A DNA stretch of 30,190 nucleotides from Chloroflexota bacterium (GTDB taxonomy: Bacteria > Chloroflexota > Limnocylindria > Limnocylindrales > CSP1-4): positions 1 through 30,190 of the forward strand of contig JBAXFC010000001.1 in assembly GCA_037140135.1 (NCBI GenBank), in the 5' to 3' direction. The translations under genes and the position numbers were made by a program. Under the pieces are notes generated by a model. It made no database searches. It was given only the letters and a program-made list of their open reading frames with translations, and was not told the origin of the DNA. Positions 2,567-9,958 of the stretch are shown in pieces; the first letter of the stretch is position 1, and every line of letters starts with the position of its first letter.

Positions 2567-2731
2567 ACGTCATCGCTCCGCGGTGGTTGCCGGGAGCGTT
2601 GTGGGTCCCCCGTCCCGGGACAGCGTCACCGTCGTGCTGGGCATCTCGACCCGGCCACCAGGGATGCAGTTCCGGTCCCCGGGCTAATCGAAGTCATCGG
2701 GTTTCGACGGGGGAGTTTGGAGGAGGCGTTC

Positions 2732-3961
2732 ATGAAATTCGCTCGTGTTGGCGTGGCCCTTGCGGTCGCGGCAATCGTCGTGTCGGCCTGCGGAGGCTCG
2801 GGCGGCGGCAGCGGCAAGACGATCAAGATCGGCATTTCCCTGCCGCTCTCCGGCTCGGCCCTGGCCAGCGCAGGCCCGGCCCGTGACGGCGCGCTCCTTG
2901 CGATCAAGGAGTTCAAGCTCGACGGCTACACCATCGAGACCGTGGTCCTCGACCACGCGGTCAACGGCGTCCACGACCCGCAGCAGGGCGCCAAGGACAT
3001 GACCACGTTCGTCGGCACCGATGGTGTCGTCGGCGTCGTCGGCCCGTTCAACTCGTCCATCGCCAAGGTGCAGATCCCGATCTCCAACGAGGCGGGCCTG
3101 CTCCAGTGCTCGCCCGCGAACACCAACCCCGACCTGACCAAGGGCGACGCCGGCGTGCAGCTCCGCGCCAAGAACCCGACCAAGATCAACTACGTCCGCG
3201 TCGCGACGACCGACGACATCCAGGGCCCGGCCGTCGCGCAGTACGGCTACACCACCCTGGGCCTCAAGAAGGTCGCGATCATCGACGACACCGAGACCTA
3301 CGGCAAGGGCATCGCCGACGCGTTCGCGGCGGAGTGGACCAAGCTGGGTGGCACGGTCGTCGGTCGCGAAGGCGCCCCGAAGGGCACCACTGACTACACC
3401 GCGATCCTGACCAAGTTCAAGGACGCAGCCCCCGACGCCGTCTTCTACGGTGGCGTGACCGCGACCGGCGGTGGCCTCGTGCGCAAGCAGATGCCGCAAG
3501 CCGGCCTCGACAAGCTCGCCTACCTCGGCGGCGACGGCATCCAGGACGGCCCCGGCACCCCTGAGAACGCCGGCTCGTTCATCAACATCGCCGGCCCGGC
3601 CGCCGCGAACTCCTACAGCTCGGTCGCCGCGATCGCGGAGTACCCGGGCAAGTCCGACTTCGAGGCCAAGTACAAGACCGCCTACGGCGTCGCCGCCGGC
3701 GCGTACTCCGCCTCGGGCTACGCCTGCGCCCAGGTGATCCTCGCCGCCATCAAGGCTGCCGCCGCCAAGGGCGCGGTTGACCGCGAGTCCGTTCGTGTCG
3801 CCGCCACCAGTGGCGCCACCTTCGACACCGTCCTCGGCCCCGTCACCTTCGACGCGGTCGGCGACACCAGCCAGAAGATCATCTCCCTCTACAAGGTCGA
3901 CCTCACGGCGGCCGGCGGCAAGGGCGACTGGATCTTCGACAAGCAGGTCGACTACAAGTAG
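2732..3961 (+). CDS. livK: Branched-chain amino acid ABC transporter substrate-binding lipoprotein (LivK/LivJ family)
   Basis: SD AGGAGG at 2721; signal peptide with lipobox VSAC; IKIGISLPLSG, VVGPFNSS, PDAVFYGG motifs. Confidence 0.92.
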   Translation: MKFARVGVALAVAAIVVSACGGSGGGSGKTIKIGISLPLSGSALASAGPARDGALLAIKEFKLDGYTIETVVLDHAVNGVHDPQQGAKDMTTFVGTDGVVGVVGPFNSSIAKVQIPISNEAGLLQCSPANTNPDLTKGDAGVQLRAKNPTKINYVRVATTDDIQGPAVAQYGYTTLGLKKVAIIDDTETYGKGIADAFAAEWTKLGGTVVGREGAPKGTTDYTAILTKFKDAAPDAVFYGGVTATGGGLVRKQMPQAGLDKLAYLGGDGIQDGPGTPENAGSFINIAGPAAANSYSSVAAIAEYPGKSDFEAKYKTAYGVAAGAYSASGYACAQVILAAIKAAAAKGAVDRESVRVAATSGATFDTVLGPVTFDAVGDTSQKIISLYKVDLTAAGGKGDWIFDKQVDYK

Positions 3962-4048: not shown

Positions 4049-5095
4049 ATGACGGCACTCCCCGCGGCCAGCGACGCCGGGCGCGCGCGCGTGCCGGCCG
4101 GCCGGGCGGTACGGCTGTTGGCCCTGCTCGCGATCGTCATCGGCATCGGCGTCGTCGCCGTGTCGAACATGGGCGTCGAGCAGGCGACAGAACAGCTGGT
4201 CAACGCCCTGACGCGCGGTGCGATCTACGCCCTGATCGCCCTCGGCTACACGATGGTCTACGGCATCATCGAGCTCATCAACTTCGCGCACGGCGACATG
4301 TTCATGGTCGGCGCGTTCGTGAGCCTCACGTTCCTCGGCCAGGTCCTCGGACTCAACGGGGCGATCACCGACGTCCCGACGCTGCTGTTCATGGTGATCG
4401 CAGCCTTCGTCGTGACCATGGTCATCCTGGCCCTCGTCGGCGTCACCATCGAGCGCTTCGCCTACAAGCCGCTCCGCCAGGCGCCCCGTCTCGCGCCGCT
4501 GATCACGGCCATCGGCGTCTCGTTCATCCTCCAGAACATCGTCCAGCTCAAGTACGGCGCGTACCAGACGAACTCGCCGCAGATCTTCCCGGACACCTGG
4601 AAGATCCCGATCGGCACCGCCAGCATCTCCGTGCTGAGCCTGTTCATCATCGCCGTGGCCGTCATCCTCATGATCGGTCTGCAGCTGTTCATCGGACGCA
4701 CCCGGCTGGGCCGCGCGATGCGCTCGACCGCGGCAGACCGCGACGCCGCCGCCCTGATGGGCGTCAACATCAACCGCACCATCGCGATCACGTTCCTGAT
4801 CGGCTCGGCCCTCGCGGGCGCCGCGGGCGTGGTCAACGGGATGCAGTACGGCGTCGCCCGCTTCGACGACGGCTTCCAGGCCGGCCTCAAGGCCTTCACG
4901 GCTGCCGTCCTCGGTGGCATCGGCAACACGGTCGGCGCGGCCCTTGGCGGCTTCATCATCGGCTTCATCGAGGTGGGTGCAACGGCCATGGGCTACACGC
5001 GCTGGGGTCCGGCGATCGTGTTCGGCACCCTGGTCATCGTCCTGGTCTTCCGACCCGCGGGTCTCCTCGGCCAGCAGCTCGGTGAGCGCGCATGA
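4049..5095 (+). CDS. livH: Branched-chain amino acid ABC transporter permease
   Basis: YALIALGYTMVYGIIELINFAHGD, TRLGRAMRS, GLKAFTAAVLGGIG motifs. Confidence 0.95.
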   Translation: MTALPAASDAGRARVPAGRAVRLLALLAIVIGIGVVAVSNMGVEQATEQLVNALTRGAIYALIALGYTMVYGIIELINFAHGDMFMVGAFVSLTFLGQVLGLNGAITDVPTLLFMVIAAFVVTMVILALVGVTIERFAYKPLRQAPRLAPLITAIGVSFILQNIVQLKYGAYQTNSPQIFPDTWKIPIGTASISVLSLFIIAVAVILMIGLQLFIGRTRLGRAMRSTAADRDAAALMGVNINRTIAITFLIGSALAGAAGVVNGMQYGVARFDDGFQAGLKAFTAAVLGGIGNTVGAALGGFIIGFIEVGATAMGYTRWGPAIVFGTLVIVLVFRPAGLLGQQLGERA

Positions 5096-6303
5096 GCGCC
5101 GTCTCGGACCTCGGCACCGCGAGGACCCGCCGCTTCGACGGCCTCAAGAAGCGGGCGGCCCGGCACCGCTCGTGGACCATCGTGGTCTCCATGGCGGTCG
5201 TCGGCGCGATCCTGCCGGTGCTCGCCTACATCCCGCCGTTCACCAGCGCCCAGCCGCCCAGCGCGTGGATCGACGGCTACACCAATGCCGGCGTCTTCGT
5301 CCTGCTCGCCCTCGGTCTCAACCTGGTCGTCGGCGTGGCGGGCCTGCTCGACCTCGGGTATGCCGCCTTCTTCGCGATCGGCGCGTACACGTACGCCTAC
5401 GTCGCGTCGCCGTTCGGCAACGACATCCTGGGCATCACCCTGATCAAGAGCTTGGGCATCGAGGGGGCAGGCATCGTCTTCTGGCCGATGCTGCTGGTGG
5501 GCGCCCTGGTGGCGGCCACCTTCGGCATCCTGCTCGGCGCCCCGACGTTGCGCCTTCGAGGCGACTACCTCGCCATCGTCACCCTCGGCTTCGGCGAGAT
5601 CGTGCCGATCGTGTTCCTCAACGCGGACGCGGTCACCAACGGCACCAACGGGATCGGCGGCCTCGTCCGGCCGGCCCTGCCGATCATCGGCGGGTTCTCG
5701 GCGATGAACCCGTGGCCGTACTACGTCACCATGCTCGCCCTCGTGGCGACGGTGATGATCCTCTGCTACCGCCTCGTCGAGAGCCGCCTCGGCCGCTCCT
5801 GGGAGGCGATCCGCGAGGATGAGCTGGCGGCCGCGGCCAACGGCATCAACACCGTCACCACCAAGCTGCTGGCCTTCGCGCTGGGCGCGTCCACGGCAGG
5901 CATCGCGGGCGTCTTCAACGCCAGCAAGCTCGTCACCGTCTCGCCCGACCAGTTCACGTTCATCGTGTCGTTCACGGTGCTCGCGATGGTCGTCCTCGGC
6001 GGCATGGGCAACTTCTGGGGCGTGGCAGTCGGCGCGTTCGTGATCTACACGATCAACAACGTGCTGCTCAAGTCGCTCAACCAGTTCTTCGACAAGACCC
6101 AGATCCCGATCCTGATGGACATCGACTTCATCCAGCTCCAGTTCCTGCTCTACGGCCTGGCGCTGGTCGGGATGATGCTGCTGCGACCCGAGGGCTTGTT
6201 CCCCAACAGCCGGCGCAAGCGAGAGCTCCACGCCGTCATCGCCGACGCCAGTGAGGACGAGCTCCTCGCTGCCGAGGCCACGACCGAGGAGGGGCAGCGG
6301 TGA
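5092..6303 (+). CDS. livM: Branched-chain amino acid ABC transporter permease
   Basis: ALGLNLVVGVAGLLDLGYAAFFAIGAY, LRLRGDYLAIVTLGFGEI, SRLGRSWEAIREDE; ATGA overlap with livH. Confidence 0.95.
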   Translation: MSAVSDLGTARTRRFDGLKKRAARHRSWTIVVSMAVVGAILPVLAYIPPFTSAQPPSAWIDGYTNAGVFVLLALGLNLVVGVAGLLDLGYAAFFAIGAYTYAYVASPFGNDILGITLIKSLGIEGAGIVFWPMLLVGALVAATFGILLGAPTLRLRGDYLAIVTLGFGEIVPIVFLNADAVTNGTNGIGGLVRPALPIIGGFSAMNPWPYYVTMLALVATVMILCYRLVESRLGRSWEAIREDELAAAANGINTVTTKLLAFALGASTAGIAGVFNASKLVTVSPDQFTFIVSFTVLAMVVLGGMGNFWGVAVGAFVIYTINNVLLKSLNQFFDKTQIPILMDIDFIQLQFLLYGLALVGMMLLRPEGLFPNSRRKRELHAVIADASEDELLAAEATTEEGQR

Positions 6304-7313
6304 GCGGCAACGTCCTGGACAACGATCCGATCCTCGTCGCCGACGGCGTCACGCGCCGGTTCGGCGGCCTGGTGGCGGTCAGCAAGGTGGACTTCACGAT
6401 CCCCGAGCGCGCGATCGTCAGCCTGATCGGCCCCAACGGGGCCGGCAAGACGACGTTCTTCAACGTCCTGCTCGGCGTCATCGATCCCTCCGACGGCTCG
6501 GTTGAGTTCCGCGGCCGGCGGATGGTGGCCCGGCCCGAGCGGCTCGCGTTCGAGTCGCTGGTCTGGGTGGCCCCGGCCCTCATCCTCGGCCTGCTGGCGT
6601 TCCTGCTGGCAGAGGCCGGGATCCTCGGCGGCCGACTCCTGGCCCTGGTGGGCTTCCTCGTCCTCATGCTCCTGATCGCGTCGCTCCTGCTCTCGATCAT
6701 CCGGCCGGTCTGGTACCAGAAGCGCCTGTCGAAGCTGGGCATCTTCCGGAGCGCGCGCCCCAACGACATGGTCGAGGCGGGTGTCGGCCGCACCTTCCAG
6801 AACATCCGCCTGTTCAAGAACATGACGGCCATCGAGAACGTGCTCGTGGGCATGCACGTCAAGCTCAAGGGCAACCTGCTCGAGGCCATGATCAACTCGA
6901 AGCGGATGCGCAACGAGGAGGTCGAGGCCCTGAACCGGGCCAACGAGCTGCTCACCCTGGTGGGCCTCGGCGGCAAGGGCAACGAGGCGGCACGCAACCT
7001 TCCGTACGGCGACCAGCGCCGGCTTGAGATCGCGCGCGCGCTCGCGTCCGATCCCAGGCTCCTGCTGCTCGACGAGCCGGCCGCCGGCATGAACCCGAAG
7101 GAGACCCAGGACCTCGTGGCCCTGATCTCCAAGCTCCGCAGCGAGCTCGGGCTCACGATCCTGCTGATCGAGCACGACATGAAGCTCGTCATGGGCATCA
7201 GCGACCGGATCACGGTCCTGGACCACGGCGAGAAGATCGCCGAGGGCACCCCCGAGGAGGTCCGCAGGGACCCCAAGGTGATCGAGGCCTACCTGGGAGC
7301 GCCGGCCGCATGA
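6300..7313 (+). CDS. livG: Branched-chain amino acid ABC transporter ATP-binding protein with an internal hydrophobic insertion
   Basis: Walker A GPNGAGKTT, RTFQNIRLF, LPYGDQRRLEIARALA, LLLDEPAAG, IEHDM. Confidence 0.92.
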   Translation: MSGNVLDNDPILVADGVTRRFGGLVAVSKVDFTIPERAIVSLIGPNGAGKTTFFNVLLGVIDPSDGSVEFRGRRMVARPERLAFESLVWVAPALILGLLAFLLAEAGILGGRLLALVGFLVLMLLIASLLLSIIRPVWYQKRLSKLGIFRSARPNDMVEAGVGRTFQNIRLFKNMTAIENVLVGMHVKLKGNLLEAMINSKRMRNEEVEALNRANELLTLVGLGGKGNEAARNLPYGDQRRLEIARALASDPRLLLLDEPAAGMNPKETQDLVALISKLRSELGLTILLIEHDMKLVMGISDRITVLDHGEKIAEGTPEEVRRDPKVIEAYLGAPAA

Positions 7314-8050
7314 CCGCCCCGACCGCACCGGCGGCGACCGACGTCGTCCTCCGGCTCACCGATGTCCACAGCTACTACGGCGCGATCCACGCGCTGCAGG
7401 GGATCACCGCCGAGGTCCGGCGCGGCGAGATCGTGACCTTGATCGGTGCCAACGGCGCCGGCAAGACCACGACGCTGCGCACGATCAGCGGGCTGCTCCA
7501 TCCCCGCCAGGGGAGCGTGGAGCTCAACGGCGTGGACATCTCGCACGTCGCGCCGCACGACCTCGTGACCAAGGGCATCGGGCATGCGCCCGAAGGCCGG
7601 CGGATCTTCTCGCGCCTCACCGTCTACGAGAACCTGCTCATGGGCGGGTTCACGCGCAGCAAGGCCGAGAATGACGAGCAGGTCGCCCACGTCTACGAGC
7701 TCTTCCCGCGCCTGCTGGAGCGGCACGCGCAGAAGGGCGGCACGCTGTCGGGCGGTGAGCAGCAGATGCTCGCCATCGGCCGCGCGCTGATGACCCGGCC
7801 GTCCGTGCTGCTGCTCGACGAGCCGTCCCTGGGGCTCGCCCCGATCCTCGTCCAGCAGATCTTCAAGATCATTCGCGAGATCAACGGCCGCGGGATGACC
7901 ATCCTGCTCGTCGAGCAGAACGCCCTGCAGGCGCTCTCGGTCGCCAACCGCGGGTACGTGCTGCAGACCGGCGAGGTGGTCCTCTCGGGTGACTCCTCCG
8001 ACCTGATGTCGAACGAGACCGTCCGCAAGGCGTATCTCGGCGAAGACTAG
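7310..8050 (+). CDS. livF: Branched-chain amino acid ABC transporter ATP-binding protein
   Basis: GANGAGKTT, PEGRRIF, LSGGEQQMLAIGRAL, LDEPSLGLAP, VEQNA. Confidence 0.95.
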   Translation: MTAPTAPAATDVVLRLTDVHSYYGAIHALQGITAEVRRGEIVTLIGANGAGKTTTLRTISGLLHPRQGSVELNGVDISHVAPHDLVTKGIGHAPEGRRIFSRLTVYENLLMGGFTRSKAENDEQVAHVYELFPRLLERHAQKGGTLSGGEQQMLAIGRALMTRPSVLLLDEPSLGLAPILVQQIFKIIREINGRGMTILLVEQNALQALSVANRGYVLQTGEVVLSGDSSDLMSNETVRKAYLGED

Positions 8051-8076: not shown

Positions 8077-9618
8077 GTGACCTCCACTCCGCGGGACGGG
8101 GGCGCCAGGAGCCCGAATCCACCCGGCGATGACGAGCCGCGGGTGCTGCTTCCGGAGACGGCGCGGGTCGCCCGCGGTGGACCCGGACCCCTGATCGTGG
8201 CCGCCCTCGTGGCGGCCGCGTTCGTTCTCGGGCTGGTGCGCCCGTGGGACTGGGTGGTGCCCGCTTGGACCGGGGACGGCGGCCCGTCCGGGAGCGCCCC
8301 GGCGTCAGCGCCCGCGCACGTCGCGTCGGATGGGGCGACGCCCGGGCCAACCGCACCCAGGGCGCCGTTCGCCGAGCCCGTCTGCGGCTACCCGACGAGC
8401 TGGCGCATCGCCGCCGATCTCGACTGGGTCGGCCACCGGGCTCGGACCTGGACGGCCGCCACAGCCGTTCCCGCATCCGGACCCACCGACCCCTCAATCA
8501 TCCCGCTGCCCGTGATCTCGTCGGTGGTGACGGCGATCGGGTGGTGCGCGCCGGTCAGCGGACCGGAGCGACCGCCGCGGACAGCCGCGGGGACGCTGTT
8601 CCGGCTTGACGCGGACGGGAGCGCGAGTGGCTCCCCGGTCGCCCGATCCGCGGTGGAGGTGTCCTTCGACCGCCTGGAGCCCGCCGCGCCCGATGCGCTG
8701 GGCGAGGTGTGGGTGCCGGTGCCGCGATCGGTGGGCATGCGGCCGCCATGGCCCGCCGGACGGTACGTGATCCGACTTGGCACGGCGGATGGGAGCTTCG
8801 TGCGATACCTCGGGATCGAGGTGGTGATCACAGCGGAGCCGTCACCGTCCGTGGAGCCGTCACCGGCCCTTCGCCAGGCCGGTCCGACGGTTGCATGGCG
8901 GGACGCTTCACCCGCACCGCGGGGGATCCACGACGTGACGGTGGCCCCGGGGCCCCGGCGGGGGAGACTAGAAGCGCGGCGCCTCGCGGACGATGTCGAA
9001 CGCGGCGCGCGCCATGACGATCGCGCCCACCACGGAGATCCAGAGCCCGTACGCGCGGTCCGGCAGCAGGCCGGCGGGTGCCGGCAGCGCGGCGGGCAGC
9101 CAGAGCGCGATGCCCACGAGCGCTGCGATCGCGAGGATCCCGAACGAGAGCCCGCGGTCGATCCCCAGCGGCCGCACGCCGGCCGCATACGGCAGGAGCA
9201 CGAGCGCCAGGGTGGCCAGCGCGGTCACGAACACCACCACGCCCGGGAAGTAGTCGAAGGCGCGATAGATCTCGGGCGGGAGGCCGCCGTCACCGCCGAC
9301 CGTGAACCACGGCAGCACGCAGCCGATCATCAGCACGATGGCGCCGATCGCCGCCAGCCGCCTGCCCCCACCCATGGACCGCCGATGCATATCAGTCGGC
9401 CGAACTGTAGACCTCGGGGCGCAGGACGCCCACGAAGCGCAGGTTCCGGTAGTGCTCGCCGTAGTCCAGCCCGTAGCCGACCACGAACTGGTCCGGGATC
9501 TCGAACCCCTGGTAGTCAACCGGGATCTCGACCAGGCGGCGGGCGGGCTTGTCGAGCAGTGTGCAGATCCGCAGCGAGGCCGGGTTCTTGCCGCGCAGGT
9601 AGCGGACCAGGTAGTTGA
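8077..9618 (+). CDS. Hypothetical single-TM-anchored protein; coding-like part ends near 8870 but the frame stays open antisense over two downstream genes
   Basis: GTG start after livF; TM segment LIVAALVAAAFVLGLV; Pro/Ala linker; domain with two Cys and WPAGRYVIRL; true 3' end uncertain. Confidence 0.55.
   Translation: MTSTPRDGGARSPNPPGDDEPRVLLPETARVARGGPGPLIVAALVAAAFVLGLVRPWDWVVPAWTGDGGPSGSAPASAPAHVASDGATPGPTAPRAPFAEPVCGYPTSWRIAADLDWVGHRARTWTAATAVPASGPTDPSIIPLPVISSVVTAIGWCAPVSGPERPPRTAAGTLFRLDADGSASGSPVARSAVEVSFDRLEPAAPDALGEVWVPVPRSVGMRPPWPAGRYVIRLGTADGSFVRYLGIEVVITAEPSPSVEPSPALRQAGPTVAWRDASPAPRGIHDVTVAPGPRRGRLEARRLADDVERGARHDDRAHHGDPEPVRAVRQQAGGCRQRGGQPERDAHERCDREDPEREPAVDPQRPHAGRIRQEHERQGGQRGHEHHHAREVVEGAIDLGREAAVTADREPRQHAADHQHDGADRRQPPAPTHGPPMHISRPNCRPRGAGRPRSAGSGSARRSPARSRPRTGPGSRTPGSQPGSRPGGGRACRAVCRSAARPGSCRAGSGPGS
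8968..9390 (-). CDS. Hypothetical multi-pass membrane protein (about 4 TM)
   Basis: ATG 1 nt after the hpt stop; hydrophobic segments, GCVLPWF and YGLWISVVG motifs. Confidence 0.8.
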   Translation of the reverse strand: MHRRSMGGGRRLAAIGAIVLMIGCVLPWFTVGGDGGLPPEIYRAFDYFPGVVVFVTALATLALVLLPYAAGVRPLGIDRGLSFGILAIAALVGIALWLPAALPAPAGLLPDRAYGLWISVVGAIVMARAAFDIVREAPRF

Positions 9619-9958
9619 GCGTGAGCCCGGTGTCGATGATGTCCTCGACCAGCAGGACGTCCTCGCCGTCGATGCTCTTGGACAGGTCCTTGATGATCCG
9701 CACCAGGCCCGAGGACTCCGTGGCGGTGCCGCCATAGGAGCTGACCTCCATGAGGTCGATCCGCAGGGGGAGCGGGATCTGGCGCATCAGGTCGGCCATG
9801 AACGGCAGCGAGCCCTTCAGCACGCTGACCAGGGTCAGGGTCTTGCCGGCGTAGTCGATGCCGATCTGGCGCCCAAGCTCTGCGACGCGGGCGGCGATGA
9901 CCTCCTCGCTGAGCAGGACCTCCCCGATGTCGGCGACGAGATCGGTCTGGTGGGTCAT
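9392..9958 (-). CDS. hpt: Hypoxanthine phosphoribosyltransferase
   Basis: VLKGSLPFMADL, VSSYG, PRPP motif VLLVEDIIDTGLTL, FVVGYGLDY. Confidence 0.97.
   Translation of the reverse strand: MTHQTDLVADIGEVLLSEEVIAARVAELGRQIGIDYAGKTLTLVSVLKGSLPFMADLMRQIPLPLRIDLMEVSSYGGTATESSGLVRIIKDLSKSIDGEDVLLVEDIIDTGLTLNYLVRYLRGKNPASLRICTLLDKPARRLVEIPVDYQGFEIPDQFVVGYGLDYGEHYRNLRFVGVLRPEVYSSAD

Follow-up and report, generated by a model that had tools for sequence, protein, structure and literature searches.

The ATP-binding cassette (ABC) ATPase LivG of a livJHMGF importer from a Chloroflexota bacterium (GTDB lineage Limnocylindria, Limnocylindrales, CSP1-4) is probably an integral membrane protein. The gene lies in the window analysed here, a stretch of 30,190 nucleotides at positions 1 to 30,190 of the forward strand of contig JBAXFC010000001.1 (assembly GCA_037140135.1). 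Its product carries a hairpin of 75 residues nested in a surface loop of the nucleotide-binding domain (NBD), which likely places two helices in the membrane beside the permeases LivH and LivM. A LivG with such a nested hairpin extends a known transporter family by a new architecture. Full-text literature searches recovered no description of helices nested inside an ABC ATPase fold, and the hairpin form of LivG is described neither in the papers nor in the solved structures searched.

Motifs, best-matching family, fold, operon and the motif at the C-terminus all identify the window gene as LivG. The catalytic motifs are complete and conserved across orthologues (alignments of 20-100 sequences), comprising Walker A (GPNGAGKT, residues 44-51), the Q-loop glutamine Q167, the signature YGDQRR (236-241), Walker B with the catalytic glutamate (LLLLDEP, 254-260) and H292 of the H-loop. 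The best family is the NCBIfam LivG model NF008449 (E 1.5e-90, 302.9 bits), followed by UrtD with 192.6 bits. The score of 302.9 bits lies below the NF008449 equivalog cut-off of 362, and the match is broken in two by the insert, as is the match to Pfam ABC_tran. The C-terminal branched-chain ABC motif PF12399 (BCA_ABC_TP_C) scores 53.5 bits at residues 311-336, against a cut-off of 25.5. The gene order livJ-H-M-G-F is found in the window and in 20/20 related genomes examined. An earlier reading of the window from sequence only had called a LivG-type gene with intact catalytic motifs in such an operon, and the family matches and related loci bear this out.

The insert, which the sequence-only reading had located exactly (Table 1), combines strongly hydrophobic helices with a markedly asymmetric charge distribution. 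Kyte-Doolittle (KD) means over 19 residues peak at 2.4 (residues 86-104) and 3.0 (residues 113-131), compared to barely 1.66 in the remainder of LivG. Among 21 orthologues spread over the class, both segments span 18-20 residues with essentially no charged residues. The mean KD values in these orthologues are 2.41 for helix 1, where the segment contains no lysine, arginine, aspartate or glutamate, and 2.66 for helix 2. The mean number of lysines and arginines is 3.4 in the N-terminal flank and 5.4 in the C-terminal flank, versus 0.2 in the connecting loop. The two hydrophobic helices with a basic flank proposed earlier are hence recovered across the class. The charge distribution follows the positive-inside rule for a hairpin with two cytoplasmic ends. 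Both ends must be cytoplasmic because a half of the same ATPase domain is attached to each, and the connecting loop would then face outside. On the biological insertion scale of Hessa, helix 2 has a favourable mean of -3.4, with the best NBD segments at +5 to +10; these energies are approximate.

Structure prediction is consistent with a discrete hairpin on an otherwise regular ATPase. An AlphaFold2 (AF2) model of LivG built from a 100-row alignment has a mean predicted local distance difference test (pLDDT) score of 90.3 and a predicted template modelling score of 0.83. The model contains two hairpin helices of 24 residues each, with block pLDDT of 84-94, and a short helix in the return linker (Table 1). 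A first run with a 20-sequence alignment produced the same hairpin helices on a poor NBD (pLDDT 63) and was superseded by the 100-sequence run. Helix 1 carries a near-invariant proline (P92), and helix 2 terminates in a conserved LL.(A/S)I(I/V)RP motif. At the level of sequence, the insert has everything expected of a membrane hairpin formed by two helices and flanked by basic cytoplasmic segments.

Comparisons among orthologues indicate that the insert is under purifying selection, old and not accidental. The length stays at 73-77 residues in 80 orthologues, and the juxtamembrane residues E85, R135, P136, Y139, A152 and P154 are invariant. Mean identity reaches 0.62 in the return linker, the best-conserved part of the insert, with 0.41-0.42 in the helices and 0.68-0.72 in the NBD. 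The connecting loop is the least conserved segment. The ratio of nonsynonymous to synonymous substitution rates (dN/dS) is ~0.42 in the insert versus 0.20-0.29 in the NBD, based on small samples with dS near saturation, and the helices remain apolar. The GC content at third codon positions is 0.973 in the insert versus 0.962 in the rest of livG, in agreement with the host-like codon style from which the sequence-only reading had argued against a recent accident. That reading had also pointed to the tripeptide ARP at both junctions, which holds for this copy only; in orthologues, only A152 and P154 of the C-terminal junction are invariant. The insert is kept even in streamlined genomes of 1.0-1.4 Mb in one family (f2).

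The insertion site likely lies at the interface with the permease. The closest solved structures to the LivG model are LptB and MJ1267, with template modelling (TM) scores of 0.87-0.92 by target length and about 0.64 by query. The best 50 solved matches are ordinary ATPase chains of ~226-375 residues covering the NBD only, none with a counterpart of the hairpin. BLAST blocks anchor LivG G66 to LptB A57/G58 and LivG G161 to LptB G79. Extended without gaps, both blocks place the insertion at LptB ~68-72, beside L72/H73. In LptB, the membrane-facing groove is flanked by L72 and H73, which touch the LptF/G coupling helices or can be cross-linked to them, whereas D64 and R77 face the cytoplasm and show no such cross-links (PMC5082905, PMC5548808). 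The insertion site would be on the membrane-facing side near the permease docking region, because it maps beside L72/H73. In the sequence, the site immediately precedes the helix and strand that bear the Q-loop glutamine.

In the genomes sampled, the hairpin is nearly always confined to a single lineage by title, and to a single paralogue within it. Within the host genome, the insert is found in 1 of about 35 ABC ATPases. At this site, 0-1 residues are found in the four remaining LivG-like paralogues; together with about 30 other ABC ATPases, these range from -5 to +11 residues (mostly 0-1), compared to +75 in the present gene. Removal of the insert had been proposed to restore normal LivG spacing, and the paralogues agree. 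LivF, the second ATPase of the operon, has +1 residue at the equivalent site. The hairpin occurs in one LivG paralogue only, always within the livJHMGF operon (20/20 related loci). A word-indexed search with residues 60-170 as query retrieved 554 cluster representatives, and nearly all of the 120 listed have 324-340 residues. With a profile of the insert only, an exhaustive search of representatives at 50 % identity gave no more than 41 hits, most of which are fragments of this family or reads from it with frameshifts. Searches of cluster representatives, Chloroflexota genomes and GTDB species genomes with the insert profile retrieved no homologue outside this Chloroflexota lineage. Among 401 Chloroflexota genomes, the profile matches three families of one class only (15/23, 4/4 and 3/16 genomes) and none of the 358 genomes of the remaining families. 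In a sample of 121 genomes of the class, the insert is present in 21/35 genomes of family f1, 5/5 of f2, 8/40 of f3 and 0/39 of f4. The count for f3 includes one genome flagged as unpublished (G477), on which no claim rests. In a scan of GTDB species genomes, the insert was confirmed at 117 loci, and almost all of these carry the title Limnocylindria, Limnocylindrales, CSP1-4 or Chloroflexota. The insert is hence not unique to this assembly, a point for which the sequence-only reading had called for a search with the insert alone.

Some database entries fall outside this pattern. Two metagenome-assembled genomes (MAGs) titled 'Candidatus Dormiibacterota' and 'Patescibacteria group' (L109 and L091) contain a typical Limnocylindria-type livHMGF locus, including the gene downstream of livF that we call gene X. 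Their LivG identity of ~62 % and GC content of 67-68 % are as in other members. A spread beyond the class was rejected, and the phylum titles probably reflect mislabelled or mis-binned MAG DNA, because the GTDB-based sample has the insert in a single class. A JGI contig of 2.3 kb (P0068) encodes 464 residues that lead from the LivG N-terminus and hairpin (1-163) into a methyl-accepting chemotaxis signalling domain (PF00015). This could be a genuine fusion or a chimeric assembly. Two cluster representatives in the AlphaFold DB, A0A523U7G6 (357 residues) and A0A357JD91 (336 residues), are ABC ATPases that exceed the usual length by 80-100 residues. Both align full-length to the hairpin model, with 32 % and 19 % identity, respectively, and may carry analogous inserts in other lineages. 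An Atlas look-up returned a LivG cluster of 344 residues, commonest in Planctomycetota.

Table 1. Coordinates of the operon, the LivG insert and gene X in the window.
Feature	Position	Strand	Description and evidence
livJ	2717..3961	+	substrate-binding protein, Peripla_BP_6; Pfam PF13458, E 2.4e-42
livH	4049..5095	+	permease BPD_transp_2; Pfam PF02653, E 1.2e-47
livM	5092..6303	+	permease BPD_transp_2; Pfam PF02653, E 5e-46
livG	6300..7313	+	ABC ATPase, 337 aa, bears the insert; Pfam and NCBIfam matches, AF2 model
insertion in livG	6528..6752	+	75 aa, residues 77-151, between beta-subdomain and Q-loop of the NBD
helix 1	6543..6614	+	residues 82-105, hydrophobic core ~87-104; AF2, charge count
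connecting loop	6615..6629	+	residues 106-110 in the model (6-10 alignment columns)
helix 2	6630..6701	+	residues 111-134, the more hydrophobic helix; AF2, KD 2.66
basic return linker	6702..6761	+	RP.WYQ..L.R.GIFRSARP; includes short helix 137-145; leads back into the NBD at the helix ahead of the Q-loop
livF	7310..8050	+	second ABC ATPase, 246 aa, without insert; Pfam ABC_tran match unbroken
gene X	8077..8900 (end uncertain; ~8900)	+	predicted single-pass membrane protein, ~150-aa outer domain with two Cys

We propose that the hairpin would act as a covalent anchor of the ATPase. The surface loop would exit the NBD just ahead of the short helix preceding the Q-loop, at the rim of the coupling-helix groove on the membrane-facing side. 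Helix 1 with its ~18-20 apolar residues would run outward across the cytoplasmic membrane, a loop of 5-10 residues devoid of lysine and arginine would turn at the outer face, and the very hydrophobic helix 2 would run back. The conserved basic linker, which is partly amphipathic, would lie at the inner face and then re-enter the NBD. Both hairpin ends would be cytoplasmic and the ATPase fold would stay intact. Most likely, the hairpin would sit beside LivH or LivM and provide a membrane anchor along with two extra peripheral helices. Such an anchor would hold LivG permanently in register with the permease. The hairpin may also tune coupling, because its best-conserved part leads straight into the Q-loop helix. 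Membrane insertion, contact with LivH or LivM and the functional pay-off of the hairpin are all points that we infer. A prediction of LivH (residues 41-348) and LivM (22-385) together with the hairpin region of LivG (70-160) from 21-row alignments scored 0.00, which speaks neither for nor against binding.

Several observations weigh against a membrane-spanning anchor docked on the permease. Helix 1 is marginal on the biological scale, with an approximate mean of about +0.6 and a range of -2.5 to +4.8. Given the marginal hydrophobicity and the conserved proline, insertion of helix 1 would need helix 2 or a partner. The helices diverge faster than the NBD, which fits lipid-facing helices and equally a loosely constrained appendage. 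The position of the insertion is also less sharply defined than the gapless extension suggests. MAFFT instead aligned the LptB segment 'LLPLHARA' with the N-terminal junction, and the site is therefore placed only within about 4 residues. Finally, the LivM profile has no match among solved chains even at E <= 1, and there is no HAAT permease structure on which to dock the hairpin.

Among the alternatives, a mainly regulatory role of a membrane-embedded hairpin is possible but doubtful. The insert connects straight to the helix and strand that enter the Q-loop, and through this link ATP hydrolysis could respond to the condition of the bilayer, the permease helices or the transmembrane helix of a partner. 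A known analogue is LptC, whose helix modulates LptB2FG. Membrane sensing by the hairpin, raised by the sequence-only reading, is a possibility. The location of the strongest conservation within the insert is in favour of such a transducer, since the return linker into the Q-loop helix carries the invariant R135, P136, Y139, A152 and P154. The insertion site also borders the coupling-helix groove, and the presence of the insert in LivG only, and not in LivF, would create an asymmetric control point. However, ligand binding would require a longer and less variable outer loop than these 5-10 residues. A purely structural anchor equally predicts conserved juxtamembrane motifs. A broader version of the idea is more tentative still and rather unlikely. 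The loop between the LivG beta-subdomain and the Q-loop might be a recurrent portal for threading ABC motors across the membrane. The Limnocylindria hairpin would then be the minimal form, with the outer loop expanded into folded domains in other phyla. The hairpin would serve as a transmembrane allosteric wire from the outside or from partner helices (e.g., gene X or binding-protein docking) to the Q-loop, gating ATP hydrolysis without the permease coupling helices.

We consider it improbable that the hairpin does not span the membrane. A monotopic or protein-buried hairpin could for instance form a wedge in the inner leaflet or an arm on the cytoplasmic loops of LivHM, and the marginal helix 1 with its conserved proline would suit such an arrangement. 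Yet, each modelled helix has 24 residues, of which 18-20 are apolar and uncharged, and is long enough to cross a bilayer. The charge is sharply positive on the flanks and almost nil in the loop, and the tight conservation of length fits a geometry of spanning and returning.

A docking site for gene X as the main role of the hairpin is slightly less probable again. The sequence-only reading had suggested the protein encoded at 8077 as a partner, in which case the hairpin would recruit this single-pass protein and the outer domain would work with the transporter. Gene X directly follows livF in 75/100 loci with a hairpin LivG. In the 121-genome sample, the 17 genomes with a strong match to gene X are all hairpin-bearing, and such matches are absent from genomes that lack the hairpin. 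Related genomes are not independent though, and the co-occurrence is statistically light. None of the 5 genomes of f2 and none of the 8 hairpin-bearing genomes of f3 yielded gene X, and it is missing from several f1 genomes that retain the hairpin. The hairpin is hence older and more widespread than gene X. The suggested partnership stands as far as the position downstream of livF is concerned, but the gene is confined to one family nested within the wider range of the hairpin. As gene X is missing from the two other hairpin-bearing families, the hairpin does not depend on it. From this distribution, gene X appears to have joined the operon later and in one family only, which would suit an accessory role but would not account for the existence of the hairpin. 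An origin of the insert as an artefact (a frameshift or chimera in the assembly) or as a selfish element (an intein or a mobile sequence recently inserted into livG) is effectively refuted. Some database relatives are visibly frameshifted metagenomic reads, but the insert lies in a single uninterrupted frame and recurs in 117 genomes at species level, some of them with closed or near-closed contigs. Its codon usage is like that of the remaining gene, its junctions are not a direct repeat, and at 75 residues without matching motifs it is too short for an intein.

Two candidate origins of the hairpin were rejected. Profile-profile comparisons with LivH and LivM helices yielded probabilities of 0.5-1.2 % only, which lends no support to a derivation from the permeases. 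A local duplication or mobile-element origin finds no counterpart in the 'ARP' junctions, which form no DNA repeat and of which the N-terminal one is not conserved.

Gene X belongs to a conserved family without a Pfam match. The predicted protein begins with a short head in the cytoplasm and crosses the membrane with a single helix. An invariant Pro-Trp comes after this helix, and a linker rich in Pro and Ala leads to the ~150-residue domain with two invariant cysteines and three invariant tryptophans. The true end of the gene is uncertain, or a sequencing error may be present, because the frame stays open to 9618 (513 residues) and homologues have ~230-320 residues. The extended frame runs antisense over other genes. 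At 8968-9958 on the opposite strand (-), the window encodes a small multi-helix membrane protein, followed by an hpt open reading frame (hypoxanthine phosphoribosyltransferase-like), both overlapped by the long open frame of gene X.

The operon itself is tightly organised. It is opened by livJ in 20/20 related loci, with an N-terminus of LivJ resembling a lipoprotein signal (…VVSAC). Start and stop codons overlap by 4 nucleotides between livH and livM (ATGA, 5092-5095), livM and livG (GTGA, 6300-6303), and livG and livF (ATGA, 7310-7313). The overlaps suggest translational coupling and a fixed stoichiometry. LivH has an additional hydrophobic N-terminal helix (residues ~21-39) before the canonical permease start, with residues 1-40 encoded at 4049-4170. 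The helix is found in most relatives and is missing in at least five hairpin-bearing operons (L017, L019, L020, L027 and L028). A co-variation between the hairpin and this LivH helix was rejected based on these five operons.

Compared to known systems, the present LivG combines a conventional motor with an unconventional topology. Canonical LivG (E. coli LivG; MJ1267, PDB 1G6H/1GAJ/1G9X; NF008449; PF00005 with PF12399) shares all ABC motifs, the BCA_ABC_TP_C motif and the livJHMGF operon with LivF. The fold is alike, with a TM score to MJ1267 of 0.86-0.87 by target length. However, canonical LivG is a soluble, single-domain protein of ~255 residues, and the present LivG differs from it in the equivalog score and in its 337 residues with a hydrophobic hairpin. 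The label of a type I-like importer, used in the sequence-only reading and tied to a permease fold of the MalFG/MetI type, is putative, and Pfam groups the permease family PF02653 with the BtuC-type (type II) permeases. LptB in LptB2FG(C) (PDB 4P33, 6MJP, 6MIT, 6S8G) is the closest solved NBD and, although the insertion maps by its L72/H73, itself has no insertion. In LptB2FGC, an extra transmembrane helix from LptC joins the permease bundle and tunes ATPase activity. The LptC helix may be regarded as a functional analogue of the helices added to LivG. The LptC helix is, however, provided by a separate protein and not on the ATPase, and LptB2FGC is an extractor, whereas the present system is a binding-protein-dependent importer. 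Proteins with permease and ATPase on one chain, such as MacB, ABCG-type half-transporters and LivM-LivG-like fusions in the Atlas, likewise unite membrane helices and an ABC domain in one polypeptide. There, a whole permease is joined at the end of the ATPase, while here two helices are nested inside the fold and LivH and LivM are encoded separately. The regulatory insertion of CFTR NBD1 is an extra segment in the region of the beta-subdomain that leaves the catalytic fold intact. The CFTR segment is soluble, disordered, phosphoregulated and located before Walker A, in contrast to a hydrophobic hairpin after Walker A in LivG.

Textbook ABC importers have a wholly cytoplasmic ATPase, which touches the membrane subunits only through the coupling helix. 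An ATPase that is itself an integral membrane protein would break this rule. The finding also has consequences for annotation. LivG proteins with the hairpin are labelled merely as 'ABC transporter ATP-binding protein', the present one falls short of the NCBIfam LivG equivalog threshold, and topology predictors would count such a LivG as a membrane protein. The class of the carriers includes abundant soil and freshwater Chloroflexota with streamlined genomes of 1.1 Mb. The hairpin would provide a natural experiment on how an NBD is kept in register with its permease, on how membrane insertion of a nested hairpin is reconciled with the folding of a soluble domain whose halves lie on either side of it, and on whether added helices tune coupling.

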